A stretch of 64,000 nucleotides of DNA, taken from a bacterium (GTDB lineage Bacteria > Babelota > Babeliae > Babelales > JABJEI01). This document shows positions 16,469 to 63,400 of the stretch, piece after piece; position 1 is the first letter of the stretch; each line of letters starts with the position of its first letter. Below the pieces are notes generated by a model. That model searched no databases and was not told where the DNA came from. It saw only the letters and a program-made list of their open reading frames with translations. Where the stretch lies: positions 9,129 to 73,128 of the forward strand of contig JABJEI010000019.1 in NCBI GenBank assembly GCA_018663245.1, in the 5' to 3' direction. The position numbers and the translations under genes are program-made.

Positions 16469-16568
16469 CGTAAACAAAATGAATCCAATTTAGCAGCGTT
16501 AGCGTTAAGCAAGAAACAAAACAGCAAAGATTAATTTTTTTACAGCTTAGCAATGAGCTACTGTTAGA

Positions 16569-16597
16569 CTGGATCCCTGTTCAAAGCCGGGGATGAC
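16569..16597. repeat. 29-nt hairpin repeat unit (reverse complement of the unit at 48623-48651)
   Basis: ctggatccctgttcaaagccggggatgac compared with gtcatccccggctttgaacggggatccag gives 1 mismatch. Internal 7-bp stem ATCCCCG/CGGGGAT. Confidence 0.8.
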
Positions 16598-16831
16598 AAA
16601 AGGAATAATTTTTTCAACAAGCCTTTCGCTAATGACGGGTAGCGTTAAGACGAACTCAACATAGTTTATTTTTAGAGGCTTTAGCGAATAGATCTTTCCG
16701 TTATCTTAAAGCAGGATTACCAAGTTCATAACCGTTAATACACTAAAAAGGTTTTTTTTAAAATGAGAAAGCCTTTGTCGTGTACAGACTAATTTCTCAT
16801 TTTACCTAAACTTTGATCGCGTAATAAAAAA

Positions 16832-32204: not shown

Positions 32205-32619
32205 TTTTAGCAAGGGGTTACTCGCCTAACCCCTTGCATACAATGGCGCCAAAGGAAAACCTTTGGAATCCTTACGCAGAAAACATTGCAACCAGAAGCT
32301 AACGCTTTTAGGTTGCTTCAAACAGTTCAGCTAATCATGAAGACCTTTAGAAATTTACTTTGTGCGCAACTTGCCAATCCTGAGAAACCTGAAGTCTCGG
32401 CGTAGCCTTTGGCGAAGACGGATCGAGCTAAAGCTCTGCAATTTCTTCAACAGTCCTGTCCGGCGAAGCTTTACGCGAAGCCTGGAACACGCTAAGCGTA
32501 GTTGTTTTTAGAAGGTCTCTCCGATCTGCCTAGTTGTGAAAAAACACTCTCTCCTTTGTCATCCCCGGACTTCATGCCCTTCGTAGCTGTTAAGCGAAGT
32601 AGGGTGAACGGGGATCCAG
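32205..32619. repeat. Mosaic of dispersed repeat modules (hairpin 1, hairpin 2, linker modules, GCGAAGC-TTTR-GCGAAG module, 'gtcatcccc..ggggatccag' unit with expanded loop)
   Basis: Module-by-module matches to 48387-48651, 52681-52930 (reverse complement), 1637-1750 and 33702-33732. Confidence 0.8.
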
Positions 32620-42247: not shown

Positions 42248-43204
42248 CTAACCCTCATGCAGGAGAGACTGTTTCAGACTACTTATATATAAATCAAGGT
42301 CGGATAAAGTCAAGTTTAGCTCGTGCAATTGGATGGTTTTGGACCCCAAGTTTTCTTGCTCGCGGGTTATCATTTTGCGCATGCGCCGCCAGAATGTCCA
42401 CTGGCGCTTGGCGTAAGCGCGTGTACGCTTTTGTATGGCCTCAACAAGGGCGTCATGAGCAACAATGTCATGACAGGCATCATCGGACAGAAATTTAACG
42501 ATCTCGTTATAGCCAATCAATTTTTTGCGTTCAATAAAAATTTGCCAGGGAGTGCCTAACAAAGCGCGAACTTCTTCAACCCAGCCTTCTTGTACCATGA
42601 TTTGTGTGCGCTTGTTAATACGCTCCAAAAGTTCTTCTCTATCTCGCTCAACAAAAATTATATGGAATTCTCTGTCGGGAAGACAAAATTTGGGCTGTAG
42701 AGTTGATGGTTTTTGGCCAGTTTTTTGGTAAATTTCGATAGCTCGTTGAATGCGGTATGGGTCTGATGGTTCTATTGTAGCCGCACGCTCGGGGTCAAGC
42801 TGCTTTAGTTGTTCCCACGAGCCCTTAATTTTTTGCTTGCAAGATTGGGATGCAGAATCACGGGGAGGGAAGAATAATGAATGTATGTAAAACATAGACC
42901 CTCCGACAATGACCGGATAGTTTCCACGAGCCTCAATCTCCTGAATGAGCTCAAAGCAACGTGTACGGTATTGAGCAACATCAAACGAGCCTGGCTCATT
43001 TAAGATGTCAAACATATGATGTGGCACCACCTCGTTGCGCCAGTCAGGTTTTGCTGTACCAATTGTCATCGGCTGGTAGAATGAGCCGATATCAGCGTTA
43101 ATTATTTCGATTGGCAGAGATTGACCAAGCTTGTGAGACAAGGCTGTTTTTCCACTACCGGTTGGTCCGGTTATCACGATTACTGGTCGTTTGTTTTTTT
43201 TCAT
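42248..43204 (-). CDS. miaA: tRNA dimethylallyltransferase
   Basis: VIVITGPTGSGKTALS P-loop, MTIGTAKP, PHHMFDI, VGGSMFY. Confidence 0.9.
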   Translation of the reverse strand: MKKNKRPVIVITGPTGSGKTALSHKLGQSLPIEIINADIGSFYQPMTIGTAKPDWRNEVVPHHMFDILNEPGSFDVAQYRTRCFELIQEIEARGNYPVIVGGSMFYIHSLFFPPRDSASQSCKQKIKGSWEQLKQLDPERAATIEPSDPYRIQRAIEIYQKTGQKPSTLQPKFCLPDREFHIIFVERDREELLERINKRTQIMVQEGWVEEVRALLGTPWQIFIERKKLIGYNEIVKFLSDDACHDIVAHDALVEAIQKRTRAYAKRQWTFWRRMRKMITREQENLGSKTIQLHELNLTLSDLDLYISSLKQSLLHEG

Positions 43205-43259
43205 ACGTTTATTTTACCACAATTTTATTTTTTAGCAGGAGTGGTAAATTTTGGGCAGT

Positions 43260-43287
43260 AAAAAGGGCCCGATTTTTAGTCGAGCCC
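43260..43287 (-). terminator. Rho-independent terminator (copy A), 57 nt upstream of the miaA start
   Basis: On the minus strand: GGGCTCGA-ctaaaaa-TCGGGCCC then TTTTTAC. Confidence 0.6.
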
Positions 43288-43524
43288 AAAAGTTATTTTT
43301 ATTAGTTTTTGCCTTATCGAGTCTTATTATTTTAGTTATTTAAAAAAGCCTTAAAAAACTATTTGATAAGCTGGTTGTCATTTTTTATAAGGTTAGAACC
43401 ATATTATCAGAATAGCAACTGCAGGAGAGTTGTCAAATAGAAAACATTGCCGTGTAAGGTGAATGAAAAAAGTTGAATTAATTGAGGGCTGCAAAAATAG
43501 CCGAAACGTCATTAGCTGAGCAAT

Positions 43525-43552
43525 AAAAAGGGCCCGATTTTTAGTAGGACCC
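43525..43552 (-). terminator. Rho-independent terminator (copy B) for the frameshifted surface-protein gene
   Basis: On the minus strand: GGGTCCTA-ctaaaaa-TCGGGCCC then TTTTTATTG. It is a ~45-nt direct repeat of copy A. Confidence 0.6.
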
Positions 43553-43570
43553 AAAGGTTAGTTTTTAGAT

Positions 43571-44550
43571 TTAGCGGTTACCGTCTCCGTCGAAATTTGC
43601 TTGTTTCTGAAGCCAGCTTAATGTTGGGCGACGGTAATTTTTTGTGATTTTCTCTATTGGTGAGTTTGTTTTTTTGTTTTTAAATGGGTTGACCTTCGGG
43701 CTATTCTTTGCTGAATGAAGTTCTTTGATTACTTTTTTTAATTTTTCTTTACAATTTTGATTTTCTAAAAGTTTCTGTTTGTTTGTTTGATTATCGGCAA
43801 TGAGCTGGCTGTTGGTGGTACTTAATGTTTGGTTCACTGCTTCAGCTTCATTGGCCAAGCTTTTTTGAGTTTCTAATTCATCGGTGAGTTGGCTGTTGGT
43901 GTTAGTTAATTCTTCGATCTTTGTAGCCGCTAGTTGGATTGCAGTTTTGATTTTAAGCTGGTTTTCTTCGGTTAAGTTTGTTTGAGTTTTTAATTGATCT
44001 GTGAGTTGAATGTTGGCATCAGTTAATTCTTTTATCTTTGTAGTCGCTAGTTGGATTGCTGTTTTGATTTTAAATTGGTTTTTTTGGTTAAGTTTGTTTG
44101 AGTTTTTAATTGATTTGTGAGTTGAATGTTGGCATCAGTTAATTCTTTGATCTTTGTAGCCGCTGGTTGGATTTCAGTTTTGATTTTAAGCTGGTTTTCT
44201 TTTGCTAGGTTCTCTTGCTTTTTCAAATCGTTGGCGAGCTGAGCGTTGGCGGCTCTTACTTTTTCCAGTTCGACAACAAGCGTGCTTGCTGTTTGACTTA
44301 CTTCTTTCGTTTGACTTCTGGTCAGATTTGCGTTGGCAGTTGTTAATTTTGCAACAGTCTTTTTATTTAGATTAAGAACGTATAGCAGATAAAAGGACAG
44401 GCTAACTCCCATTGCGGCTACAATTGGAACGACTTTTCTAACAACTTTTTTATATGTAGGCCTAATGAGTTTTAACTTGAGTCCGCTAGTTTGAGTTGCA
44501 ATTGGAAGTGTGGCTGTAATTGCGAGCGCGATCAGTAATAGCTTCTTCAT
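43571..44550 (-). pseudogene. Signal-peptide/TM coiled-coil surface protein interrupted by a -1 frameshift in a T7 (coding-strand A7) tract
   Basis: ORFs 44047-44550 and 43571-43858 are in adjacent frames. Adding one A at 44079-44085 gives a continuous ~326-aa ORF. The repeat unit holding the tract is 116 bp while its neighbour is 117 bp. Confidence 0.8.
43860..44210 (-). repeat. About three tandem 117-bp (39-aa) coding repeats
   Basis: Landmark ttgtag(c/t)cgct(a/g)gttggatt recurs at 43921, 44038 and 44154. Encoded unit: ..IKELTDANIQLT(D/N)QLKTQTNLT(E/K)(E/K)NQ(L/F)KIKTAIQLA(A/T)TK. Confidence 0.85.
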
Positions 44551-44874
44551 GGCTAGTAACCTTTTTGACTATGAAGTGTATTTGCCTTTGATGATATCTC
44601 TTTTAGGGTAACATGGATGCTGAGTCTGTTAAGTAGATAGTTTTAAGTATCACTTTTGCCCGGCAGTTAATGATTGTTGTAAAAATGAAATGGATTCATA
44701 TAGAAATATATATAGGGCGATAAATTAGGGGCAAGATTGGCATTTTTGCATATAGATCATATATCGGGTAACCAAAATTGCAAAAACGAGCAAAAAGAGT
44801 CTATTTTATCCATTTTTGGGTTTCAACACATTTTTTAGAAAGTTTTTGTCTTAAAATATTTAGTTTTTTAAAGA

Positions 44875-44921
44875 ATATTGCGCTGCGCCGTTACATGTGT
44901 AATTATGGCGCAGCGCAATAT
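44875..44921 (-). terminator. Long perfect hairpin downstream of carD
   Basis: 15-bp perfect stem atattgcgctgcgcc / ggcgcagcgcaatat with a 17-nt loop, ~55 nt past the carD stop. The U-tract is weak. Confidence 0.5.
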
Positions 44922-44975
44922 CTGAGTTTAACTTAAAGTCTCGGATAAGCCTTGTTGTAACCTTTTTGGCGCGTA

Positions 44976-45542
44976 TTAGCCTGGAATTTCTGCTAGGCTG
45001 TATTTGCACAGTGACGAGCGAATGTAGGCAATAATTTCGTCTGGATCTTTGTGTCGGGATTCACCAATTTCTTCAGCAAGCAACTGTTCGGTTTGCTTAA
45101 GTAGGTTTTTTTCACCAAAGGAAAGCTCTTTATAGGTAGCGATATAGGATAAATCACGATAAATTTCTGACAGGTCCAAAAGAGAGCCTGTTCGTAATTT
45201 GTTGTGATAATCGCGATTACGTTTGTTCCAACTGCTGGCGGTAAGTTCGGGGCAATCGGTTTTCTTTGCTGGTTGAGCGATAGTTAAATATGCTTTTTCA
45301 ACATTGTCAGAGGAACTTATTTTGCGAATTCCGGTATGGCTGGAGCTATTTATTGGGACAAGAATAGTCATATCATTATTTAGAAATGTAAGTTCAAATA
45401 GCTTACACGAGCTGCCCCCAATGCTGCGCTCGATAATTCGACTTATGCGCGCAACACCGTGACCGGCGAAAACTACCTTTTCATTCAGGCCAAACATAGC
45501 GCGTACTCCCTGTGCGAGTAGAAAAGGACGTACGTTCACCAT
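44976..45542 (-). CDS. carD: CarD/CdnL-family RNA polymerase-binding transcription factor
   Basis: N-terminal KVVFAGHGVARISRIIERSIGG...LFELTF..MTILVPIN (CarD_CdnL_TRCF Tudor-like domain). The true start may be the internal ATG at 45497. Confidence 0.75.
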   Translation of the reverse strand: MVNVRPFLLAQGVRAMFGLNEKVVFAGHGVARISRIIERSIGGSSCKLFELTFLNNDMTILVPINSSSHTGIRKISSSDNVEKAYLTIAQPAKKTDCPELTASSWNKRNRDYHNKLRTGSLLDLSEIYRDLSYIATYKELSFGEKNLLKQTEQLLAEEIGESRHKDPDEIIAYIRSSLCKYSLAEIPG

Positions 45543-45577: not shown

Positions 45578-46264
45578 TCACGATAAACGGTTCTTTTTTA
45601 AAAAAATTCTATGAGCTAAAATCAGACAGACTGAAAGCGAAATTGGGTGGTGATAAGCCCATAGTGCCAATCGTTTTATTAACGAGGCTCGACCCGCTAA
45701 ATTGCGGGATCTAAGGGTGCTTTGTAGTAGATTAAAGCTGCAAGAAAGGCTGTTCATTAAGCGTGGAAGTGGTTTGTTGATGTTTGTTTTATAAATATTT
45801 ATTAGATGTTTGTTTGGAGTAAGTTTGGTAGACGTCCCATTTAGTTCGTCGATAAAAGTTATGTAAATTGCCTTGAGAACTATACAGAATTCTTTGAGAA
45901 TTGTAACCTCTTGGTCGAGGTCGCTGCCTACACCATTTTTTTTATAAATTCTCCAACAATCAATGACGGGCATGTAGCTAGTGAATCGCATCATGCGACA
46001 CACGCACCAACGAACAAGATCATTTTGGAACATGATATCGGCTCGGGGTTGTATGTTTTTGGATGGGATGCTTGTCCACGTGCAATAGTCTGCAATTCGT
46101 GAATCTAGGAACGCTTCGAGATTGTTGATCTGTCGACCAATTACACGGAAAGCCTTGATAATGTCTTGATGGGTCTCGGTGTATCGAATTGGCTGACCGT
46201 TAAGTTCTGTGGCACACACAAGAATTATTGTAGCGTACAGAATTGCCTTGTGGAACCGGTTCAT
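45578..46264 (-). CDS. Orphan secreted protein (228 aa)
   Basis: Signal peptide MNRFHKAILYATIILVCATELNG. No recognised motif. Confidence 0.6.
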   Translation of the reverse strand: MNRFHKAILYATIILVCATELNGQPIRYTETHQDIIKAFRVIGRQINNLEAFLDSRIADYCTWTSIPSKNIQPRADIMFQNDLVRWCVCRMMRFTSYMPVIDCWRIYKKNGVGSDLDQEVTILKEFCIVLKAIYITFIDELNGTSTKLTPNKHLINIYKTNINKPLPRLMNSLSCSFNLLQSTLRSRNLAGRASLIKRLALWAYHHPISLSVCLILAHRIFLKKNRLS

Positions 46265-46361
46265 GACAAGTGCCTAGTCTTTTAAATCTTTGGCGACCAT
46301 TCAATGAAATGTACCACATATAGGGTATAAAAAGATATTCTTTTACAAATGATGTAGGGGG

Positions 46362-47252
46362 CTAAATTTTGTATGAAAAGCCACCAACTTTTTGTAGGAG
46401 ATAGCCTGCAATAGGCTGCCATAATTTTTGAGTAATTGTTGGTTGTGCAAATCTCTCTAGTGAACCATATAGATCGATAGGTTCATTAGTTATGTATTCA
46501 TATTTATCGCTAGAGTTACTAGAAGCGTTTGATATTAATATGTCATAAAATGGCGTCCCCCGAAATAGCTGGGCAAGTATCATTGAAGCTTTTGGTATAG
46601 ATTTTTGATAAAGTGACGACCCATAAAATAGCTGGGCAAGTAGCGTTCGTGTTGCGATTACACCTAATAAAAGGCCAGCTTTACGAGTGAGCAAACTTTG
46701 CATGCTGATTGGCTTTTTTTGTAATCTACGTAGTAGTACTTCTGTGAGGCAAATAGCGATGAACGATGCGATAGGCTTCTTGAGCATGTAGCGTGTTCCT
46801 GTGCGTAGCTCTTCGCCGTTGTGCAGCTGGTTGTCGCTATATTTGTCTCCGATATCAGACTTTCCTTGTAGCAAAAAAGTTATTTCGGATGCTATTAGCA
46901 ATTGGATGGCCATTTTAGACAGGTTATTTTTTGGATTTTTCCACAATGGGTCTATTTTTGTTGGGTTCTGAAATAGCTTGCGTCTAAGTAATTTATGATT
47001 TATCACCTTGTGCCATACCAAATTAACAAGCAGCTTATACCATGCTATTTTAACACCTTTAAAAGCGGATCGCGCAATCAAGTCGAAAATAAATTGATTG
47101 AAAAAAATTTGGCTTCGCTTTGCCGTTCTTTGGACAATGTTAAGCGGTTTTGCAAGTTGGTTTAGCTGAGTTGGTAATTTTGGTGCAGTAAAAATGCTTG
47201 GCGTAAAGCCAATACTGGTAGCAAGTAATAGTGAAAGTATTCTTTGTTTCAT
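46362..47252 (-). CDS. Orphan secreted protein (296 aa)
   Basis: GGAGG lies 5 nt upstream of the ATG at 47252. Signal peptide MKQRILSLLLATSIGFTPSIFTA. Confidence 0.62.
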   Translation of the reverse strand: MKQRILSLLLATSIGFTPSIFTAPKLPTQLNQLAKPLNIVQRTAKRSQIFFNQFIFDLIARSAFKGVKIAWYKLLVNLVWHKVINHKLLRRKLFQNPTKIDPLWKNPKNNLSKMAIQLLIASEITFLLQGKSDIGDKYSDNQLHNGEELRTGTRYMLKKPIASFIAICLTEVLLRRLQKKPISMQSLLTRKAGLLLGVIATRTLLAQLFYGSSLYQKSIPKASMILAQLFRGTPFYDILISNASSNSSDKYEYITNEPIDLYGSLERFAQPTITQKLWQPIAGYLLQKVGGFSYKI

Positions 47253-47398
47253 GGCAACCTCCAAGTCCCCAAGTCTCCGATATATTTCTTGAGCGAACTA
47301 ATGTACGCCTATATATTATTATGGACTATTTGGCAATTTTGTCAAGTTGAGCATAAAGCAAGGGCCTGGAAATAACTCCAAGCCCTTGAGATAGTTTT

Positions 47399-48055
47399 TT
47401 AGGAAATGTTGTACAAGTAAGCGAGTGCTTTACGAGTAACGATTTGACTTACAGCAGTCAAAGCGCGACCTGTAACATTTATATCGCCTCCAAGTAGGCA
47501 GCCTTTTACAGTAACTCCGCTAGCGAATTTACTGATAGGTCTCCAGACTGAGTTAGTCTTACCAAGTTCGCTTTCAGGCGAAATTCCTGCAGCCCAGAAA
47601 GATGACTTGCGGCAGTGGAAGTCTATTGCATTAGTTATAAATATAGGTGCTATGGCGTCTTTTGCTTCTTTTATGAGCAGGCTTCCAAATGTTTTATTAT
47701 TTAGGGATAGCATGTTCTCTACAACAACAGCGGGAAGAACCCTTATTGCTATAGCTGCAAGTGTGCTCTTTAATAGCACCGGGCCAAGAACGTCGGTTAC
47801 TGCGATAGGCGAAAAGCGTAAACGCATCCACAAACGCTGCTTAAACGGCGGTAATTCTTTTTTCTCTTCGACTACTTCTTGTTGTTGGGCGCCAGTGTCA
47901 CCATTTGGGGTTGTAGTCTCTAGTTGGGCAAAATGCTTTAAAACTGTGCGAGCGCTTGAATTTTGAGGTGTAACACCTTGTATTGCGGGAGGTGTAGCCA
48001 CAATTGGGCCAAAAGCAGTTAATGCAAAAAATAAGGAAAGTAAAAGCTTTTTCAC
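47399..48055 (-). CDS. Orphan secreted protein (218 aa)
   Basis: GTG start with AGGGGA Shine-Dalgarno sequence. Signal peptide MKKLLLSLFFALTAFGPIVA. Confidence 0.6.
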   Translation of the reverse strand: MKKLLLSLFFALTAFGPIVATPPAIQGVTPQNSSARTVLKHFAQLETTTPNGDTGAQQQEVVEEKKELPPFKQRLWMRLRFSPIAVTDVLGPVLLKSTLAAIAIRVLPAVVVENMLSLNNKTFGSLLIKEAKDAIAPIFITNAIDFHCRKSSFWAAGISPESELGKTNSVWRPISKFASGVTVKGCLLGGDINVTGRALTAVSQIVTRKALAYLYNIS

Positions 48056-48226
48056 GAAATCCCCTAATTAGTTAAAGTGTCCTTAAGATTATATATATAA
48101 TTATTATATAACTAAATGCATATTTGGTCAAAATAACTTTAATAAGTGGCTTTAGTTTAGCCCCTTATAATCCCATATTTTTACAAAAAGCTTTATCTAA
48201 TTTTAATGCTTTTTTCCAAACTCTTC

Positions 48227-48830
48227 TTGCATCTATACTTTAATACTTTTGCGACTCGTCTTTGCTGTAGCTACGCCGTCACAGGTTTTTAAACTACCTT
48301 TTAATAAATCCCTGTCATCCTCGCGAATGCGGGGATCCAGTCTTTAAATAGATCATTTGATCACCTTTTGCATCTATACTTTAATACTTTTGCGAGGGGT
48401 TGCTCACCCAACCCCTCGCGGACAAGGGTGCCGGGGGAACCCCTGGGCCCCGGCGTGCGTAACTTGAAACCTCGAGCTAAAGCTCTGCAGTTTCTTCAAC
48501 AGAGCGCACTCAACTGAATTATTTATTTTTAGATGGCTTGGCCAAGACAAGGATGGCATGCATCCGTCTTCGCCTAAAAAACGCCTCCCTTGCCTGGCCT
48601 GCGAAGCCTTTGGCGAAGACGGGTCATCCCCGGCTTTGAACGGGGATCCAGTTTTTCAGTAGCTCATTTGAATGTCTGAGAAAGGTTTCTAGATATTTTT
48701 AGACTTTTGCATATTTACTATGAAGTTGCACTTAACGGATAATAGCTTTAGTCCTGGATCCTTGCATGCCATCCTTGTCGCGGCGTAGATGTAGCGAAGA
48801 CGGATTAAGCGATGTCGGGCGAAGTTCGCA
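48227..48830. repeat. Largest cluster of the dispersed modular repeat family
   Basis: Direct repeat cttgcatctatactttaatacttttgcga at 48227 and 48367. Hairpin 1 at 48392-48419. Hairpin 2 at 48431-48446. Units gtcatcctcgcgaatgcggggatccag (48314-48340) and gtcatccccggctttgaacggggatccag (48623-48651). Internal inverted pair 48541-48562 / 48768-48790. Confidence 0.85.
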
Positions 48831-48843
48831 GAACGAAGACTGA

Positions 48844-49548
48844 TTAGATGATTAGCGAAGGATTGCCATCAGTGTCGATATACCAGTTGATTGTAGGCTT
48901 ATCTAGCAGCGGCTTGTAGACAAACAAGTCGTTAAAATCATTCAGATCTTGCGACTGGTCTTCTTGGTTGATGATTTTATACTCTCTGAGCGCAAGTCTT
49001 TTTGCTCGCTCATTATAGTATGCATATAGGAGGCGTGGGAGCTTTTGGAACAAGGCTAAACTTGCTGTTTCAATAACCGCACCTAACACTATATTTTGTT
49101 TTATCCCAGACGTAAACGCTACTTTTAGACTCGAACGTTTACAGATAGCGATTGTAACATTTTTGACCGTAGTCCAAACGAGTTGGCCGCCTACTTGCAT
49201 CGGTATTAACAGTAGGCTTTGTTCTCGATCAACAACAGCAAGGCCAATCTTGCCAAGTGGCCTGGCAAAGGGCTTTATTTTAGCTAGTGGCGCGACTAGC
49301 TTAGAAAGTTGGCTTGGTTTTTTTGCAGCGAGGGCTTTTGTGGCGCCTACTATTTTAGTTGTAGGTGTCGTGCTTTTTATTTTTACACCCAAGTATTTTT
49401 TTGCCAAGTTCGCAGCGGCTAACTCGGCCCCTGTCATAATAAGGCGCCCAGTAAGTCCTGGTCCGTTATCGGCATAAACTGGAAGGTGCGCGCCGAGTAG
49501 GCACGCACCAAGAAAGATTGAGGCAATTGGTTTTAATAATCGTTGCAT
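48844..49548 (-). CDS. Orphan secreted protein (~234 aa)
   Basis: Signal peptide MQRLLKPIASIFLGACLLGAHLPVYA. Ala/Lys-rich. Confidence 0.6.
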   Translation of the reverse strand: MQRLLKPIASIFLGACLLGAHLPVYADNGPGLTGRLIMTGAELAAANLAKKYLGVKIKSTTPTTKIVGATKALAAKKPSQLSKLVAPLAKIKPFARPLGKIGLAVVDREQSLLLIPMQVGGQLVWTTVKNVTIAICKRSSLKVAFTSGIKQNIVLGAVIETASLALFQKLPRLLYAYYNERAKRLALREYKIINQEDQSQDLNDFNDLFVYKPLLDKPTINWYIDTDGNPSLII

Positions 49549-49565
49549 TGGCACCAGGTTCGCGG

Positions 49566-50297
49566 TTAAGTAGTTCCTAATAAGTTACTGTTTTTACCGT
49601 CCTTTTTTGGCTCAATGCTTTTAAGTTTAGCATTTTCTTCAACTTTTGGCTCGCGCAGTTTTTCGTAGGCTTTGCGCATTGGAACCAGCATAAACCTAAC
49701 ACCAATCGTGCAGCCGGTTTTAATGGCTGTGCTTTTTAGCTTATCTATGCCGAAATCAGATTCTGTGGCAGCTGACACGATAAACCGTATAATTGCAAAT
49801 TTAGCAAGCTTGCCGAGTTGTTTGTGCGTTATGTATTCAAATGACTTAAGCTCTTTTTTAATATCGGAATCTCTGTTCCATGGCGAGATCTTCCTAATGG
49901 ATAATTCAACTTCATCGCCAGGTATGCCAGCGATAACATTTATAAGCGTGTCGTTAATTATACCTGAATAATCCCGCTTTTCTCTAAATCCAAAGTATTT
50001 CAGTGCAGCGCTAGCAGTGATTCTCTCTGTAGCTGATATAGCAAATGCAAAGAGTGTTCTGGCGGGTACACGCTTGAAAATACTAGGACGTTCTTTTGTT
50101 CCAAAAAAGTAATCCTTGGCACCGCCGTCAATCAAGTTTAGGGGGTTTAGGCGCGATGCCCAGCTCGCCCGCTTTACTTGCGCTAGCGAGTCATTTTTGG
50201 CAACTGCAGCAACGTGTGCGTGTAGTCCAAGTAAGCAAATGGCGGCACTGGTTAGAATAATTCTTTGTTGTAGGTTCTTCATAAACTTTTTGTTCAT
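49566..50297 (-). CDS. Orphan secreted protein (243 aa)
   Basis: Signal peptide ..RIILTSAAICLLGLHAHVAA. No recognised motif. Confidence 0.6.
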   Translation of the reverse strand: MNKKFMKNLQQRIILTSAAICLLGLHAHVAAVAKNDSLAQVKRASWASRLNPLNLIDGGAKDYFFGTKERPSIFKRVPARTLFAFAISATERITASAALKYFGFREKRDYSGIINDTLINVIAGIPGDEVELSIRKISPWNRDSDIKKELKSFEYITHKQLGKLAKFAIIRFIVSAATESDFGIDKLKSTAIKTGCTIGVRFMLVPMRKAYEKLREPKVEENAKLKSIEPKKDGKNSNLLGTT

Positions 50298-50337
50298 CCT
50301 TTATGATGACTTAGGGTTTGGTACTATGTTAGCTTTT

Positions 50338-50940
50338 TTAATTTTCTTTAAGTTTTTTCAGCGCCAGCTCGTACAGTACGTTAAATCGATTTTTTATGCT
50401 CTCTAGAACGAGCCTGTGAGCCTTCTTTAGGACTGGATGTGTAACTTTTAAACTATCGTCTTCTAATTTATCGAGAATCTGGTCATTGAATTTAAGCGCT
50501 GCGACACTTTGTCCACAAATCAGCTCTGCATCTTTGTCGCTACGCATTTGTAGAGGCAGAAATGCATTTTTGGCATACACAACTAAAAAGTGCCGCATTT
50601 TATCCTCGTCTACGAGTTCGGACATGGCAAAAGATAGGGCGAGCTTTTCTCGAGAGATGGGTTTGCTTGCTTCAACATTGCTACTAATCTTGTTTAGGGC
50701 CCAGGCAACTGCTGCCACTTCGATTGGCGCCCATACCTGAGAATCTAATTTTAATTCATTTAAACGCTTTTTTGACGCCTTAAGACGCATTTTTAGATAA
50801 GTGCTTGAGAGAGCAATAGACTCTTCATAGAGTTTTTCTTGATTGTTAATAGCATTCTGGGATTTAGCTGAACATACCATAGGCAGGGCAAGCAAGATCG
50901 AAAAGGCCAATTCGTGAAAAGTTATCTGTTGTAGGTGCAC
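50338..50940 (-). CDS. Orphan secreted protein (~200 aa)
   Basis: AAGGAG lies 6 nt upstream of the GTG at 50940. Signal peptide ..FHELAFSILLALPMVCSA. Confidence 0.58.
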   Translation of the reverse strand: MHLQQITFHELAFSILLALPMVCSAKSQNAINNQEKLYEESIALSSTYLKMRLKASKKRLNELKLDSQVWAPIEVAAVAWALNKISSNVEASKPISREKLALSFAMSELVDEDKMRHFLVVYAKNAFLPLQMRSDKDAELICGQSVAALKFNDQILDKLEDDSLKVTHPVLKKAHRLVLESIKNRFNVLYELALKKLKEN

Positions 50941-51144
50941 TATCAACTCCTTTGTTAGCTGGACGTGGCATCTTGCTACAGTATTAAGCCTGTGGAGGCT
51001 AATGTAGCATCGATTGTTGAGCTATAAGCATGATATGGAAGATGTTTTTGTCAAGTAATGTAGCATGAAACATGCGCAGAAAGGCAATAATGTTACTAGA
51101 GGCTCAGGGGTAATAACTCAGAGCCTCTTACTTGGATAAGCTTC

Positions 51145-51612
51145 TTAAACTTCTTCTGTCATTATCGAGCTGCGCTCGCCAAGTAAAATCTCGCGCTCAT
51201 TAAGCAGCATATTGTGCTTTAGCAGTTCTATTGAGAGTCTCAGCTTTATTCCACCAAGTTTATCATCATGTATGAGTGACTCTTGTTTGACGGTGCTTTC
51301 GGTGTCTAATTTCGCTTTTTCAACGCATAACGTATATAGCTTGTCGTTGATATTACGCTTCTCCTCCAATACTTTATCAGTTATTTCAAGTATTTCTGGA
51401 ACTTTATTAATAATCTGAGGCAAGCGCGCTTTAATGCTTTTTAACATTGCTTCGCGTAGCTCCACTGACGCAAGCCTCTCCAAGCCAGCTGTTATAGCAA
51501 TTAAGCGCTCAGTTTTGGTCTCGTCGAGATAGGCATTAGTCTTGCCGATCTCGGCAAGGGTGCCGGCAGTTGCCAGTAGTAGGCCGTACAGGGCTATTTT
51601 AGTGTATTTCAT
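51145..51612 (-). CDS. Orphan secreted protein (155 aa), helical
   Basis: Signal peptide MKYTKIALYGLLLATAGTLA. Confidence 0.6.
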   Translation of the reverse strand: MKYTKIALYGLLLATAGTLAEIGKTNAYLDETKTERLIAITAGLERLASVELREAMLKSIKARLPQIINKVPEILEITDKVLEEKRNINDKLYTLCVEKAKLDTESTVKQESLIHDDKLGGIKLRLSIELLKHNMLLNEREILLGERSSIMTEEV

Positions 51613-56400: not shown

Positions 56401-56458
56401 AAGGCTGGTTAACAGCGAGGGGCGCCTTTTCGGACGCCCCTCGCTGTTAACCAGCCTT
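56401..56458. terminator. 58-nt near-perfect palindrome; bidirectional terminator between the 408-aa gene and fibre gene A
   Basis: 24-nt arms aaggctggttaacagcgaggggcg / cgcccctcgctgttaaccagcctt plus 2 more bp around a 5-nt loop. The right arm includes the fibre-gene stop codon. Confidence 0.7.
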
Positions 56459-59400
56459 ATTTGTCTTTTTTATCCTTCTTAAGTTCTTTGCGAAGGTCGT
56501 CTATCTGCGCTTGCATATCTTCAAATCTCGCTTGAACACCCTCATAACGCTCCTTCATATCTTCATTATCATTGCTCAATTCTTGAACAGCCTTAATAAG
56601 TGGCGTAACCAATTCTGCGTAACAAATACTATAATAACCCAATTCAGAATTTGGACGATTCACTGCAAAATCTGGGTGACCATGCCGCATTGCCACCTCA
56701 TCAAGCTCTTGCCCTATCAAACCGTACCTTTGTTTATCACCTTCACCTGCAATAAGGTGATAGCTAACGGTATTTAAATCATTAATAAACTCTAGGCCTA
56801 AATTAGATGGCTCGATATCGCGCTTCAAACGTTTATCAGAAGAAGCGGCCCATGCTGTTGCCCCATTTGTCAGCTTTACACCACCACTTGTATTGCTAAC
56901 CTCAAGCTCATCATCTCCAGAGTCGTACCACATTCCAACGTCAACTCCGTTAGTAAAGGAATAAGCTGGTGTTGATATGGTTCCATCCGTAGCACGCACA
57001 TAACCACTAGCACCATTTAAGGTCAAAACTCCAACAGAACTTAATGCCATTTTTTCTGTTGAATGCGTTGCTCCAACGGCAGTCTTAAATGACAATTTAG
57101 TCGCATGATCGGAACCGGTGTGCCTACTCTCTGCAACAGCCTCAATCGCAGCAACATCATGCTCTCCCAAGCTTTCAGCTGGCGTGTAAAAATCAATAAT
57201 ACCTATCTTATCATCAACCCTAATGTCCGACTCTCCACTGTAAAATCCCAAATATGCTGGCGAATCGTCTCCTGAAGCAGTGTGCTTTATTATTAAGCCC
57301 TTATCAGGATCATGAATAAGACGAACTTCACTATCGGCACCAAACCGAATCACAGAGTTATCTGAACCCAGAACAATGTCATCTACAAATGTCACAACTC
57401 CATCTGAAGCTATAGTCATTGCTGTGGCAGCATTAGCAGAACCAATTGTTCCACCATCCTTGATCTTTATATCGTCAACAAAGGCCACAATACCATCTGA
57501 AGCTATAGTTATTGAACTCGTAGCGCTGGCAGAACCAATTGTGCCGGCATCAGGAATCACTATCGAGCCGCTACCACCATTTAGTGTCAAAACACCAACC
57601 GAGCTTAAAGCCATTTTTTCTGTTGAATGCGTTGCTCCAGCTGCAGTTTTAAACGACAATTTAGTTGCATGATCTGAACCTGTATGCCTACTTTCTGCAA
57701 CAGCCTCAATCGCAGCAACATCATGCTCTCCCAAGGTTTCAGCTGGCGTATAAAAATCAATAATACCAATCTTGTCATCAACTCTAATGTCCGACTCTCC
57801 ACTATAAAAACCCAAATATGCAGGCGAGTCGTCTCCTGAAGCTGTATGCTTTATTATCAGGCCCTTATCAGGATCATGAACAAGATGAACTTCACTATCG
57901 GCACCAAAACGAATAACAGAATTATCTGAACCCATAACAATGTCATCAACAAATGTCACAACTCCATCTGAGGCTATAGTCATTGCTGTATCGGCACTGG
58001 CTGAACCAATCGTTCCACCATCTTTAATTTTGATATCATCGATAAAGGTTGCGATGCCATCCGAAGCTATAGTTATTGCAGCAGAAGTAGTGGCCGAACC
58101 AATCGTTCCGCCATCAGGAATTACTATCGCCCCACTGCTACCATTCAATGTAAGCACGCCGGTTGAGCTAAGCGACATCTTCTCTGCCGCAGCCTCAGAT
58201 GCCGCTGTTTTAAACGACAACTTAGTAGGATTATTTGTAGCGCCAAAAGTAGCCTCTGCAACAGCTTCAATCCCGGCCGCAACCAACACAGCATCCGCCC
58301 CTGTTTCACCTATTGCCTGAAAATCAACTACGCCAATTTTATCATTAACAGCAACAATTGCTTCATCACTTTGGAGGGTAAGAGAAACAGGCTTTGCCGC
58401 ACCTGTAGCAGCATGCTTTAATATAAGACCCTTATCAGCGTTATGAGCAAGCTCAACTTCTTGGTCATTGCCAAAATAGATGACGCCACCATCGGCTAAG
58501 TACAAGTCACTCCACTCAAGACTAGCGCTACCCAAAGCCGCTGAATCAGCCGAAGCCGGTGCTAAAGCACCAGTAAATGTAATACCATCAGAGAAAGTCA
58601 CAATTCCGTCAGAAGCTATAGTTATTGCAGCAGGAGTAGTCATCGAGCCAATCGTTCCACCATCCTTAATCTTGATATCATCGACAAAAGTTACAATGCC
58701 ATCCAAAGCGATTGCTATTGCTGTAGCAGCGCTAGTTGAACCGATCGTTCCACTATCTTTAATTTTGATATCATCGACAAAGGTTACGATGCCATCAGAA
58801 GCTATAGTTATTGCAGCAGAAGTAGTGGCCGAACCAATCGTTCCGCCATCAGGAATCACTATCGCCCCACTGCCACCATTGAGCGTAAGCACACCGATTG
58901 AACTAAGTTTCATCTTCTCAGCGGCAGCTTCTGATGCTGCTGTTTTGAATGACAGCTTGGTAGGATTATTTGTAGCGTCAAAGGTAGCTTCTGCAACAGC
59001 TTCAATCCCGGCAGAAACTAGAACAGCATCAGCTCCTGTTTCACCTATTGCCTGGAAGTCAATGACACCGATTTTATCGGAAGCATCAATAATTGCCTCA
59101 TTACTTTGGAGGGTAAGATATACAGGCGTGTTCGAACCCGAAGCAGCGTGCTTTAATATAAGACCCCTATCAGCAACATGGGTTAAGGTAATTTCTTGGT
59201 CACTACCAAAATATACAATCCCACCATCTGCTAAAAACAGATCACTCCACTCAAGGCTAGCGCTACCCAAAGCCGCACCATCTGCCGAAGCCGGCGCTAA
59301 AGCACCAGTAAATGTAACACCACCAGAACCAGACTTAAGTGCAACTTGTGTTGTACCGTTTGTATTACCTATAGTAATCGTTCTATTAGCCGCACCTGTA

Positions 59401-60134
59401 CCAATATTAATGGCCTGAGCATCCGCATCGTTACCTACATTAATTGCACCACTAGTAGAGTTCAAAGACATAGCACCGGTACAATCAAGATCTATTGTCG
59501 TTGCAGAAGACAGCGTTGTTGTACCTGTTCCACCAAGCACAAATGATGCAGTTCCGTCAGTAAGAGTCAAAGCGTCACCCGACGTAAGCGTGATAGCTGT
59601 TGAAGTAGCTGTAAATGCAGTGTTACCTGGGGAACCAAGCGCCAATGTTCCAGTGCCGTGAGGGTATATCGTTATGTTTTCATTGTCAGCAATGGTGGCA
59701 ATACTAATATCACTTGTAGTATTAATATGCCATCTACTACCCAATAGCGAACGTGAGTATGCATTTAAATTATCGCTAACAATACGCAAAACTGCGTCAT
59801 CTTCGATGCAGTCATGATGATTCTGAAGCAACTCCTGACAGCCATCAATAGCATCCAAAAGAACTTCCATTTCTATCATATGCTTGCCACGTTTAACGCA
59901 TTCAAAAAGCTCGCTAACAGCTTCTGGAATCTCGAGACCGCGACAAGCACGTTCTAGAACCATAACAGCTGGAGCTATATCAGAACCATCAGGCAGAACC
60001 AAGCAAATCTTGCATGAATAGTAATCACTAAATGAATTGTATGAATCCGAACCTTGTACAGCCTTTAATAGTCCTACCGGAAGCAAAAACGATACCAACA
60101 ACAATGCTCTTATTGTACGCGCCGCTGTCTTCAT
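56457..60134 (-). CDS. Secreted repeat-rich fibre protein A (1,225 aa) with C-terminal Peptidase S74-like intramolecular chaperone domain
   Basis: AAGGAG Shine-Dalgarno sequence. Signal peptide MKTAARTIRALLLVSFLLPVGLLKAVQG. Gly/Thr/Ala/Ile-rich beta-type repeats. C-terminal 128 aa start with SSDKRLKRDI..GL.FINDL..VSY......YGLIGQELDEV (Ser-x5-Lys dyad spacing as in endosialidase/tail-fibre chaperone domains) and end in a coiled-coil tail. Confidence 0.85.
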   Translation of the reverse strand: MKTAARTIRALLLVSFLLPVGLLKAVQGSDSYNSFSDYYSCKICLVLPDGSDIAPAVMVLERACRGLEIPEAVSELFECVKRGKHMIEMEVLLDAIDGCQELLQNHHDCIEDDAVLRIVSDNLNAYSRSLLGSRWHINTTSDISIATIADNENITIYPHGTGTLALGSPGNTAFTATSTAITLTSGDALTLTDGTASFVLGGTGTTTLSSATTIDLDCTGAMSLNSTSGAINVGNDADAQAINIGTGAANRTITIGNTNGTTQVALKSGSGGVTFTGALAPASADGAALGSASLEWSDLFLADGGIVYFGSDQEITLTHVADRGLILKHAASGSNTPVYLTLQSNEAIIDASDKIGVIDFQAIGETGADAVLVSAGIEAVAEATFDATNNPTKLSFKTAASEAAAEKMKLSSIGVLTLNGGSGAIVIPDGGTIGSATTSAAITIASDGIVTFVDDIKIKDSGTIGSTSAATAIAIALDGIVTFVDDIKIKDGGTIGSMTTPAAITIASDGIVTFSDGITFTGALAPASADSAALGSASLEWSDLYLADGGVIYFGNDQEVELAHNADKGLILKHAATGAAKPVSLTLQSDEAIVAVNDKIGVVDFQAIGETGADAVLVAAGIEAVAEATFGATNNPTKLSFKTAASEAAAEKMSLSSTGVLTLNGSSGAIVIPDGGTIGSATTSAAITIASDGIATFIDDIKIKDGGTIGSASADTAMTIASDGVVTFVDDIVMGSDNSVIRFGADSEVHLVHDPDKGLIIKHTASGDDSPAYLGFYSGESDIRVDDKIGIIDFYTPAETLGEHDVAAIEAVAESRHTGSDHATKLSFKTAAGATHSTEKMALSSVGVLTLNGGSGSIVIPDAGTIGSASATSSITIASDGIVAFVDDIKIKDGGTIGSANAATAMTIASDGVVTFVDDIVLGSDNSVIRFGADSEVRLIHDPDKGLIIKHTASGDDSPAYLGFYSGESDIRVDDKIGIIDFYTPAESLGEHDVAAIEAVAESRHTGSDHATKLSFKTAVGATHSTEKMALSSVGVLTLNGASGYVRATDGTISTPAYSFTNGVDVGMWYDSGDDELEVSNTSGGVKLTNGATAWAASSDKRLKRDIEPSNLGLEFINDLNTVSYHLIAGEGDKQRYGLIGQELDEVAMRHGHPDFAVNRPNSELGYYSICYAELVTPLIKAVQELSNDNEDMKERYEGVQARFEDMQAQIDDLRKELKKDKKDK
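57011..58138 (-). repeat. Two tandem 564-bp (188-aa) in-frame repeats inside fibre gene A
   Basis: Landmark gccattttttctgttgaatgcgttgctcc occurs at 57046 and 57610. The copies are roughly 90% identical by eye. Confidence 0.85.
58081..59330 (-). repeat. Two tandem 735-bp (245-aa) in-frame repeats inside fibre gene A, containing 93-bp (31-aa) sub-repeats
   Basis: Landmark gcagaagtagtggccgaaccaatcgttccgccatcagg occurs at 58081 and 58816. The 31-aa unit D(G/S)GTIGS...ITIASDGIVTFVDDIKIK is repeated three times around 58590-58850. Confidence 0.85.
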
Positions 60135-60404: not shown

Positions 60405-63400
60405 TTATTTGTCTTTTTTATCCTTCTTAAGCTTTTTACGCAGGTCGTCTATCTGCGCTTGCATACTTTCATATTGCGCTTGAACGGCCTCATAACGTGT
60501 TTGCATGTCTTCATACATTACTTGTGTATCTTCAGACCTGCTACTTAACTCCTGAACAGACCTTATCAGTGGAGCTATTAAGCTCGAATAAGCAACGCCA
60601 TACTTTTCGGACTCGCCACCAGGACGGTGAATTCCCGCAAAGTCAGGATGCCCATGCCGCGTTACCACCTCTTCAAGCTCTTGAGCAATTAAGCCATACG
60701 ATGCTTTAGGATTTTTACCAGAAATTCTACGGTAACTAACAGGGTTTAAATCATTGATAAAATCAAGACCCAAATCCGACATCATGATATCGCGCTTTAA
60801 GCATCTATCAGAAGACTCAAAGAAGCCTGTCGAACTGTAAACAGCAGACCAACCAGCTGAAGAGCTTCCAGACTTATAAAGGTTATCACCGGAAGGTAAA
60901 ACATCACTTCTAACCGTAATCGTATCAACCGCGGTATCACCGATGTCCATCATTTTAGTTAACGTACCGTCTGTCCGGGCTGTGTAAAAAATCAAAGAAC
61001 CATCCTCAGCTCCGCTTGTTGCTGTTTTTACCTTAGCCTCAACTCTTGCAAACTCTTGGTTGTTTTGTAGCGTATCATCAGCATAAAACTCAATTGTACC
61101 TGACAAGTCACCAGCTGCACCAGCTGCACCCTTATCCATCACAAAACGGAACTTGGCCGCTGCTGTGTCGTTGGTTGTGTTTTTCAACTCAAACAATGGT
61201 TTTGATGCTGTAGCACTATCGATAATTACCGATGGCGTTGTAGCAAGTACGGCAACCGTCGAGGTAAAGTCAACTGTTGGCGCAACCACATCAAGCTTTG
61301 TATCAGCATCAATATCTAATTGACCGTCAGCGCTTGAAGCTATTGAAATCGCTGAATCTCGGAACTGCAATGCCATAGCGTCATTCAAGCGAACACCCGT
61401 GTCAGCAATATGAGTTAGCTTTACATCCTGATCATTGCCCAAGTTTATAACACTACCATCAGCTAAGAACAGGTCGCTCCATTCAAGGGTTGCTGAGCCA
61501 AGTGCCGCAGCATCTGCTACCGAAGGAACAACACTACCTTTAACTGTCAGAACACCGGTTGAACTGAGCGACATCTTCTCTGCCGCAGCTTCTGATGCTG
61601 CTGTTTTAAACGACAGCTTGGTTGCATTGTTAGCAATTCCAAACGTTCCTTCTGAAACCGCTTCAATACCAGCTGCGATCAAAATTGCATCTGTTCCACC
61701 CGCCTCATCTGGCGCTTGGAAGTCTATTGCGCCAATTACATCACTGACCACAACCGCAGTTGAACCTGTCTGAAGTGTAAGGATCATCGGTGTATTAGCA
61801 GCTGTAGCAACACGCTTGAAGTCAAGCCCATCAGTTGCAGAGTCATGAGTTATCGTCGCATCTGAAGTAGCACCAAAACTTAGAACTGCACTATCTGAAG
61901 CCAAGGAAACATCATCGCCAACCCAAAGATCAGCTGCAACACCAAGGCCACCACCAACTGTCAAAGCACCTGTAGTCGAAGAGCTTGATGCTGTTGTAGC
62001 AGTCACAGCAACTACACCACCCGAGGATATAGAAATCGCATCTGGATCACCAGCAGAACCAATGGTTCCCGCATTCTTGATGAGAACATCATCTACAAAT
62101 GTTACTACTCCATCAGAAGCTATAGTTATAGCAGCAGGAGTAGTGGCCGAACCAATCGTTCCGCCGTCTGTAATTTTCAATGCTACTACACCATCAGAAG
62201 CTATAGTTATGGCATCAGTTGTGCCAACCGAACCAATCGTTCCACTATTGGGAATTATTATCGAACCACTGCCACCATTAAGTGTAAGTACACCGGTTGA
62301 ACTAAGCCTCATTTTTTCTGCGGCGGCTTCTGATGCTGCTGTTTTAAATGATAACTTGGTAGCATTGTTGGCCGCACCAAATGTTCCTTCTGAAACCGCT
62401 TCAATACCAGCTGCGATCAAAATTGAATCTGTTCCACCGGCCTCATCAGGCGCTTGGAAATCTATGGCACCAATAACATCACTTGCCACAACCGCCGTTG
62501 ATCCAGTTTGCAAGGTAAGAATCATTGGCGTGTTAGCACTTGTAGCAACACGTTTGAAGTCAAGGCCATCAGTTGCAGTGTCATGAGTTATTGTTGCATC
62601 TTGCGTATTACCCAAGCTTATTGCTGCACCATCGGCTAAGAATAGATCGCTCCACTCAAGGGCCGCACTGCCCAATGCACTACCATCGGCTGAATTTGGC
62701 GTTAATGCACCACCAACCTTCATTGCGCCGCTTACGTTCACCTCTGAGGAGGCGTTAATGTCAACTGTTGGCGCAGTTATTTCAATTTCTGTATCTGCAT
62801 CAATATCAAGTTGTCCATCTGCGCTTGAGCTTATCTTTAATGCGCTATCGCGGAACTGAAGCTCTCTTGAGCTGTTGAGCAATAAACCAGTATCAGCTAC
62901 ATGTGTCAACGTTACATCTTGATCATTGCCAAAACCCAACACGGCACCATCACCAAGATACAGGTCGCTCCACTCAAGATCTGTTATTCCAAGTGAATAA
63001 GTGTTTGCATCTGAAGGAACAAGACTACCTCTAAAGGTGGCCATCAAGTTGCCAGACATCCCAAGATCCATCGTCAAAGTCTCGGTACCAGCTATCATAG
63101 TGTAGAAGGCTAAAGCACCATCTTCTGTTGTGCTTGTAGGATCTTTAATCCGAGCCTGAACACGAGCATACGTTGTCTGATTACTTGCTGAATCTTCACC
63201 GTCAAAATAAATACCTGCTAAGAAGTCATTAGCTGCTGGACTTGAACTGTTGTTATGCATCTTAACTTGAGGGTATGGGCCCGAACCACTGTCGCCAACC
63301 TGTGTAATTGCCATTCCACCAGTACCAAGATTTACGTTGACCGCTGTTGAACCGGTCGTATTACCAATAGTAATCGTTCGAGCTGCTGCACCTGTACCAA

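Follow-up and report, generated by a model that had tools for sequence, protein, structure and literature searches.

Two open reading frames called in a 64-kb stretch of bacterial DNA (the window, i.e., the whole stretch that was analysed) share a tandem repeat: the first stops inside a repeat unit, and the second continues the same repeat in another frame. This raises the question of whether they are one gene that has lost a single base and, if so, whether the loss is a sequencing artefact, a mutation that truncates the protein, or a functional site at which the reading frame is switched or recoded. The elements involved are as follows.

44047..44550, minus strand: the 5′ ORF as it stands, 167 aa, translated from the sequence
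44079..44085, minus strand: run of seven A residues on the coding strand (T7 on the plus strand), at the junction of repeat units 1 and 2; site of the one-base deficit
43571..44086, minus strand: the part read on in the -1 frame, 171 codons and a stop codon
43857..44202, minus strand: tandem repeat, 3 copies of 117 bp (39 aa); Tandem Repeats Finder reports 3.0 copies with 88% matches

The 167-aa ORF comprises, in order, a signal-peptide-like N-terminus, a TM-like segment, a helical region, repeat unit 1, ten out-of-frame residues and a TAG stop. The run at 44079-44085 contains exactly seven T residues on the plus strand, with G on either side, and lies mid-gene, at codon 155 of 326. In the 0 frame the coding strand reads ACC AAA AAA ACC AAT TTA ... 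TAG; after the two lysines there are ten aberrant residues, TNLKSKQQSN, and then the stop, at 44049-44047. Addition of one A gave a 981-nt ORF of 326 codons, ending at 43571 on the minus strand. Removal of two A residues (A5) also restored the ORF, with 325 codons, while the products with A6 and A9 were 159 and 160 aa.

In the -1 frame the reading continues through repeat units 2 and 3 and one more, degenerate, unit to a C-terminal tail that is basic and has little structure; the 95-aa ORF called mechanically at 43571-43858 is part of this continuation. All 171 codons are open, and no second lesion was found there. When the downstream 504 nt were shuffled with composition matched, an in-frame stop was absent in only 1 of 20,000 shuffles, so this frame is not open by chance. 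These results reproduce, by translation and hydropathy, what a first-pass annotation of the locus had described: an ORF at 44047-44550 with a signal peptide, a TM segment and repeats that stops inside a unit; a downstream frame, including ORF 43571-43858, that continues the repeat and the C-terminus after a -1 shift; and an uninterrupted ORF of about 326 aa if the run were A8 instead of A7. The called ORFs (167 aa and 95/88 aa) are the two halves of a single 326-aa orphan gene.

The repeats themselves record the missing base. A direct-repeat search gave start-to-start spacings of 117 and then 116 bp between successive copies, the drop arising because one base is missing, and this matches the landmark spacings noted earlier (117 bp from 43921 to 44038, and 116 bp from 44038 to 44154). 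As protein, the repeat units are ENQLKIKTEIQPAATKIKELTDANIQLTNQLKTQTNLTK, KNQFKIKTAIQLATTKIKELTDANIQLTDQLKTQTNLTE and ENQLKIKTAIQLAATKIEELTNTNSQLTDELETQKSLAN. The repaired junction reads ..LTKKNQFKIKTAIQLATTK.., and its counterparts in the neighbouring units read ..LAKENQLKIKTEIQPAATK.. and ..LTEENQLKIKTAIQLAATK.., so that the ancestral frame can be inferred from the gene's own internal repeat units, which show the expected junction reading. When the repaired protein was modelled with AlphaFold2 from the single sequence, residues 51-281 formed one helix, unbroken across the junction. These observations support the view that the gene is broken by a one-base deficit in the A7-bearing repeat unit, and that its repair gives a continuous helical repeat protein of 326 aa.

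The other junctions, which are 8 nt each (AAAGAAAA at unit 0/1 and GAAGAAAA at unit 2/3), suggest two ways in which the base may have been lost. The mutation would have been either slippage from A8 to A7 or deletion of the G from a junction of the form AAAGAAAA. The slippage route would take two steps, G to A first and then A8 to A7; loss of the G yields A7 directly. Because A7 can arise in this one step, the homopolymer may be a product of the lesion rather than its substrate, a consequence of the deletion and not its cause. Thus, the earlier claim that one base was lost within the tract holds as to the one-base deficit in the unit with A7, but loss of the G from AAAGAAAA is another possible route.

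The 167-aa ORF starts MKKLLLIALAITATLPIATQTSG, which is signal-peptide-like (residues 1-23) and is followed by a basic stretch, a hydrophobic TM-like segment at about residues 41-61 (Kyte-Doolittle 19-residue mean of up to 1.9) and then a polar helical region. In the AlphaFold2 model, residues 91-250 had a block-mean pLDDT of at least 90, and disorder was seen at the N-terminus (first 33 residues) and in the tail (about 280-309). The hydrophobic periodicity of 3.5 residues was significant (reached by 0 of 1000 shuffles), and the 39-residue unit corresponds to five heptads plus four residues, i.e., a stutter. The long α-helix and heptad-like periodicity of a coiled coil are therefore both present by prediction, and the best explanation is a membrane-anchored, elongated α-helical, coiled-coil-like protein built from 39-residue repeats. 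A surface location of the predicted rod is unproven, because the membrane topology is ambiguous, with a basic loop preceding the TM segment: if the signal peptide is cleaved and one TM segment remains, the rod would lie in the cytoplasm, but the strongly basic loop ahead of the TM segment argues for the reverse orientation.

The protein has no detectable relatives in the collections searched. HMMER, run exhaustively against 1.84 billion representative proteins, recovered just two fragments of the protein itself. In Pfam there was nothing beyond coiled-coil noise below threshold, sequence searches of NCBIfam and PDB matched no family, and no paralogue of the gene was found within the window. 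Judged by these sequence searches, the gene is a lineage-specific orphan.

If the true genome carries A8 and the gene is intact, the deficit would be a homopolymer sequencing or assembly error, an option listed in the first-pass annotation. Homopolymers and tandem repeats are classic error sites, and some assemblies do break inside this repeat (L014 and L018 end there, and L028 starts there). Seventeen distinct public contigs span the tract (4 NCBI MAGs, 11 ENA assemblies with SPAdes-style or MEGAHIT-style names, and 2 JGI metagenomes). They derive from different samples and several assemblers; each carries A7, and identity among them is 100% over 1151 bp. Contigs were also retrieved via the flanking genes CarD and MiaA, and so independently of the tract; these look-ups gave the identical arrangement in every contig returned. 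The flanks matched the window with 99.94-100% identity over up to 10.5 kb per contig, with zero gaps. Across those 10.5 kb, 17 A/T runs measure 7-8 nt, and no contig had an indel at any of them.

When every homopolymer in the 64-kb window was tested, no other one-base shift was found to fuse long open frames inside one gene; a single further match, at 22990, falls on the boundary between genes. Three pairs of overlapping ORFs, at 21.5-25.3 kb, 5.9-7.8 kb and 36.7-37.7 kb, had been suspected of being frameshifted, but each proved to consist of separate genes whose mechanically called ORFs extend too far. Given 17 identical A7 contigs, no indels at other runs and no other homopolymer-linked frameshift in the window, a consensus error is highly improbable, and the lesion is real.

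The lesion is also fixed in the assemblies. An index of public assemblies lists the exact 167-aa product in 47 blocks, and an exact look-up among about 15 billion predicted proteins found it on 33 contigs. Diversity among the compared contigs was <0.06%, and all of them come from one near-clonal population, so that this fixation counts as roughly one evolutionary observation. Some assemblies may share reads. One of the source samples, SAMN05224518, is a Saanich Inlet metagenome (PMC10224968). Source metagenomes with contigs of the locus include, besides this biosample, BioProject PRJNA247822 and runs SRR3719563 and SRR3725726.

A real lesion could still be reversible. The gene might be a contingency locus, OFF at A7 and ON at A8 or A5, in which slipped-strand mispairing reversibly switches a host-facing or surface rod protein and the sampled population happens to be OFF. 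Several features would suit such a switch: adding a single A completes the ORF (326 aa at A8), the lesion is single and the downstream frame fully open, and the protein, with its signal-peptide-like N-terminus and TM segment, is encoded in a slot where a relative has secreted ankyrin-type proteins. Genes of this kind are often phase-variable.

The alleles observed argue against it. The public contigs covering the tract all had A7, and tract length was constant in 17 contigs by DNA and in 33 by protein look-up. None of the A8 (326 aa), A5 (325 aa), A6 or A9 products was present among the approximately 15 billion proteins by exact look-up, and a search with the whole downstream frame matched only the cluster of 95-aa ORFs and nothing longer. 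A DNA scan of JGI metagenome_contigs for A8 returned zero, but so did a control that accepted A7 (4-11-nt filler); that collection therefore lacks the locus, and its A8 negative carries no weight. ON and OFF alleles were therefore not both observed, with the qualification that these are consensus assemblies, which hide minority tract lengths, of a near-clonal population.

The length of the tract does not single it out either. In the 64-kb window, A/T runs of exactly 7 number 54 and those of exactly 8 number 17 (Markov-1 expectations 33 and 13), and there is no run of at least 9, against 7.3 expected; most homopolymer runs in the window are poly-A on the coding strand. Other A7 runs lie, for example, at 43669-43675, 43733-43739 and 45106-45112. 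With 71 runs of 7-8 nt and none of at least 9, the genome evidently tolerates or favours 7-8 and purges the length at which slippage becomes serious, implying that runs of 7-8 are not highly unstable here. No run in the 10.5 kb compared across contigs carried an indel. The A7 of this gene is one of about 70 such runs in 64 kb, an ordinary tract no longer than the genome background and not a hypermutable outlier. Moreover, it lies mid-gene, so that an OFF state would still make half a protein, and the deletion itself may have created it. Phase variation, the first explanation offered in the earlier annotation, is not supported, and we regard a contingency locus as an unlikely interpretation.

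A second way in which the A7 site might function is recoding, in which transcriptional slippage that adds an A to the mRNA, or -1 ribosomal frameshifting, would produce a minor 326-aa isoform beside the major 167-aa form. Restoration of the frame requires a -1 shift, equivalent to one extra A, and this is the direction favoured by backward slippage of RNA polymerase on A/T runs (PMC5574713). There is also a precedent for two isoforms from an A run, in tssM1 of Citrobacter rodentium, where the run is A11 (PMC4256274). Finally, it is the full-length stop, rather than the premature one, that has a terminator-like hairpin after it.

The run is short for this purpose. Insertions by transcriptional slippage become exponentially more frequent as the run lengthens, and the RNA:DNA hybrid spans 9 nt (PMC5574713); productive slippage is documented at 9-11 A residues or more (PMC4256274; PMC5009743). 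The present run, at 7 nt, falls short of the hybrid length of about 9 nt, so only background-level slippage would be expected. For ribosomal frameshifting, no slippery heptamer X XXY YYZ is in phase at the site, the phasing ACC AAA AAA ACC giving C AAA AAA or A AAA ACC. Neither kind of stimulatory element was found: no Shine-Dalgarno-like GGAGG is visible directly upstream of the A run, and the 119 nt downstream of it are essentially unstructured, with no hairpin or pseudoknot (MFE -1.4 kcal/mol, z +0.98; a fold no less stable was reached by 163 of 200 shuffles). Recoding at this site is accordingly quite improbable.

Taking both mechanisms together, the idea that the A7 site is functional, as a slipped-strand ON/OFF switch or as a point of low-efficiency slippage that sets the ratio of the 167-aa to the 326-aa form of a host-facing rod protein, is unlikely. 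We found no positive evidence for either phase variation or functional slippage.

The surroundings of the gene were examined for signals of transcription and translation, and for conservation in relatives.

44560..44564, minus strand: AAAGG, a weak Shine-Dalgarno-like motif 9 nt before the ATG, read from the sequence
44705..44826, minus strand: promoter-like hexamer pairs upstream of the gene, a suggestion only
44875..44921, minus strand: hairpin with perfect 15-bp arms just downstream of carD (-29.7 kcal/mol, z -7.1)
43521..43553, minus strand: weak terminator-like hairpin plus U-run, 18 nt past the full-length stop (-9.9 kcal/mol, z -1.0)
43252..43300, minus strand: second copy of a 49-nt terminator-containing repeat, just upstream of miaA (-13.7 kcal/mol, z -3.5)

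The strong hairpin at 44875..44921 is likely to be the carD terminator; it sets the coiled-coil gene apart as a transcription unit of its own. A promoter scan upstream of the gene found sites no more numerous than in shuffles. The hairpin at 43521..43553 belongs to the 49-nt direct repeat, the two copies of which are 86% identical and 265 bp apart; the copy on the miaA side folds better. An Rfam scan of the window returned no matches.

The best named relatives of the RecA encoded in the window are Candidatus Dependentiae/Babeliales, at about 70% identity. The closest RecA (81%), from JGI 3300072015, is on a 4.8-kb contig that stops short of the locus, and a scan of GTDB genomes with CarD returned one distant relative only (49% identity) and no close sister genome. 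The backbone carD ... miaA-SPOR-SurA-like-recA-infC-rpmI-rplT-zapA is kept in two relatives, but the carD-miaA interval is not. In one relative (L020) the interval is empty, and in the other (L031) it holds five unrelated genes, some with signal-peptide-like N-termini; two of the five have ankyrin-repeat Pfam matches, and a third is ankyrin-like by sequence. From this gene content, the coiled-coil gene occupies a hot spot of accessory-gene gain and loss between carD and miaA, and a freshly broken gene in such a variable accessory slot is unsurprising.

We conclude that the gene for an orphan, membrane-anchored rod protein has probably been truncated or inactivated by a one-base deletion that is real, recent and fixed in a clonal population. 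Two features expected of a recent pseudogene were found, a frame disrupted relative to an intact state that can be inferred, and a lesion that is real and fixed. Recent pseudogenisation had been among the options first put forward, and it is the one we favour, since the lesion is real and fixed in the assemblies and the downstream frame is still open. In the sequence of events that we propose, a one-base deletion would have struck the junction of units 1 and 2 of an orphan gene in an uncultured marine Dependentiae/Babeliales-like bacterium, and would then have become fixed in a near-clonal population that includes at least one sample from the Saanich Inlet series. The 167-aa product would keep the membrane anchor and approximately the first 95 residues of the helical rod, and would be without the remaining 125 or so rod residues and the C-terminal tail. 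The outcome would be an ordinary early-stage pseudogene or truncation, with no dedicated switch.

That the event is evolutionarily recent would follow from a downstream frame that is fully open and free of a second lesion. Stops would be created by 82 of 1512 substitutions in this frame, and if unconstrained it would stay open with a probability of 0.26 at 5% divergence and 0.065 at 10%; an unconstrained frame would thus probably be broken by about 5-10% divergence. A single lesion with an open downstream frame of 171 codons is also what is expected of a maintained switch or a recoding site. Like the recency of the lesion, we infer the loss of function of the gene, and the 167-aa truncated product may itself be functional. 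The weight that remains falls to readings inseparable from the recent, fixed truncation that we favour, for example an adaptive truncation with the 167-aa product as the functional form.

Frameshifts at homopolymers in fast-evolving accessory genes are well known, and the present gene adds a case from a little-studied lineage. As it stands it matters little, beyond illustrating cleanly how an accessory gene decays in a host-associated lineage that is uncultured and poorly known. It does show that a homopolymer-linked frameshift in a MAG can be genuine rather than an artefact, and it has a practical consequence for annotation, namely a merged 326-aa gene model. Dependentiae is a phylum of obligate protist-associated bacteria with no genetics. 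If length heterogeneity or read-through at the run proved true, it would point to antigenic or host-range switching, or to control of isoforms, in Dependentiae, and a functional A7 site would to our knowledge be the first contingency or recoding locus described in that phylum.

Among known proteins, the chlamydial Inc and streptococcal M-like fibrillar proteins are similar in having N-terminal hydrophobic segments and a long α-helical repeat rod, and in being fast-evolving and lineage-restricted. They differ in that the orphan protein has no detectable sequence homology to any family. Among known frameshift sites, the programmed -1 sites (A AAA AAG, as in dnaX and IS elements) share an A-rich shift site and the -1 direction, but here the heptamer is out of phase and there is neither an upstream Shine-Dalgarno-like element nor a downstream structural stimulator. 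Genes that make two isoforms by slippage (tssM1 with A11, PMC4256274; dnaX with runs of 9 A/T) share a premature stop soon after an A run and a full-length frame reached by one added A, and short and long forms are conceivable in both; the run is 7 nt here versus 9-11 or more there. The poly(A) genes of Buchnera and Blochmannia, cited in PMC5009743, belong to the same class of rescue by slippage.

The simple-sequence contingency loci of Neisseria, Haemophilus, Campylobacter, Helicobacter and Bordetella (phase-variable surface genes; e.g., PMC1891110, PMC2823697) share with this gene an intragenic homopolymer that sets the frame; a putatively envelope- or host-facing protein and a one-base change that restores the ORF are shared also. 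The tract here is different in being short, typical of the background and located mid-gene rather than at the 5′ end, its length is invariant among assemblies, and there is no support specific to that mechanism. The closest resemblance is to early-stage pseudogenes or truncations that arise through single-base indels in or beside short homopolymers, in host-associated bacteria whose accessory genes turn over fast. Shared with these are the lone frameshift and the still-open frame beyond it, the A/T-rich surroundings, the restriction of the gene to one lineage, the variable slot and the clonal fixation. What distinguishes the present case from them is that the ancestral state comes solely from the gene's own internal repeats.

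The carD-miaA interval is a variable slot for accessory genes, the surrounding gene order being otherwise conserved. Its contents differ among the window and the contigs of two relatives with the same backbone, L020 (distant) and L031:

Window 43204-44976: a single orphan coiled-coil gene
L020 6519-6670: no gene
L031 604-6556: five genes

Two of the five L031 genes gave ankyrin-repeat Pfam matches, and signal-peptide-like N-termini were observed in some of them. Next to the coiled-coil gene in the window lies a 49-nt direct repeat, whose two copies are 86% identical and 265 bp apart:

43252-43300: 49-nt direct repeat, one copy
43517-43565: 49-nt direct repeat, other copy

Both copies hold a terminator-like hairpin (GGGxxC...GGGCCC) with a U-run, the miaA-proximal copy being the better folder of the two (-13.7 kcal/mol, z -3.5). 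The repeat pair may be a footprint of the insertion of the coiled-coil gene.

Over the window as a whole, A/T runs 7-8 nt long were in excess (71 observed versus ~46 expected), and no A/T run of at least 9 nt was found, versus 7.3 expected; the pattern resembles a sharp cut-off imposed by selection at 9 nt. Runs of 7 nt showed a strong strand bias, with 45 T7 versus 9 A7 on the forward strand, and the majority of runs are therefore coding-strand poly-A. In L020, miaA (6670-7200) is seemingly split into a 122-aa ORF followed by further sequence. Judging by its name, MFD06092, this MAG may come from Microflora Danica, a project of long-read MAGs. If it is indeed long-read, the split is probably a homopolymer error, and would be a reminder that such artefacts occur elsewhere.

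L003, a contig of the near-clonal population (public assembly ERZ27250210), is 99.99% identical to the window except beyond 48404, where it departs from it; past this point (L003 1-1146) a different gene, for a small signal-peptide protein, takes the place of the window sequence. The breakpoint region shares a short intergenic repeat that is dispersed in the window:

48595-48761, 16552-16614, 32385-32437 and 1715-1758: dispersed intergenic repeat

The divergence is explained by a structural variant or, alternatively, by a chimeric contig joined at a repeat.

Several ORFs, including a series upstream of carD, lacked a Pfam family:

45578-51612, minus strand: seven successive ORFs, 155-300 aa
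25474-31041, plus strand: very large ORF, 1855 aa
1897-4689, minus strand: very large ORF, 930 aa

For the seven ORFs no Pfam family was found, and a Pfam search with the two very large ORFs gave no match at E <= 0.001. The first ORF of the series has a hydrophobic N-terminus. At the equivalent position, L020 carries J-domain and cysteine-rich proteins, the latter possibly RING-like, with hydrophobic C-terminal segments. The series may be an effector-like array.

Two neighbouring genes encode paralogues that are 38-39% identical:

56457-60134, minus strand: ~1200-aa protein with internal repeats and C-terminal Peptidase_S74
60405-63896, minus strand: ~1200-aa protein with internal repeats and C-terminal Peptidase_S74

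The pair suggests that this bacterium has self-cleaving trimeric fibre proteins. The Peptidase_S74 domain is the endosialidase/tail-fibre intramolecular chaperone.
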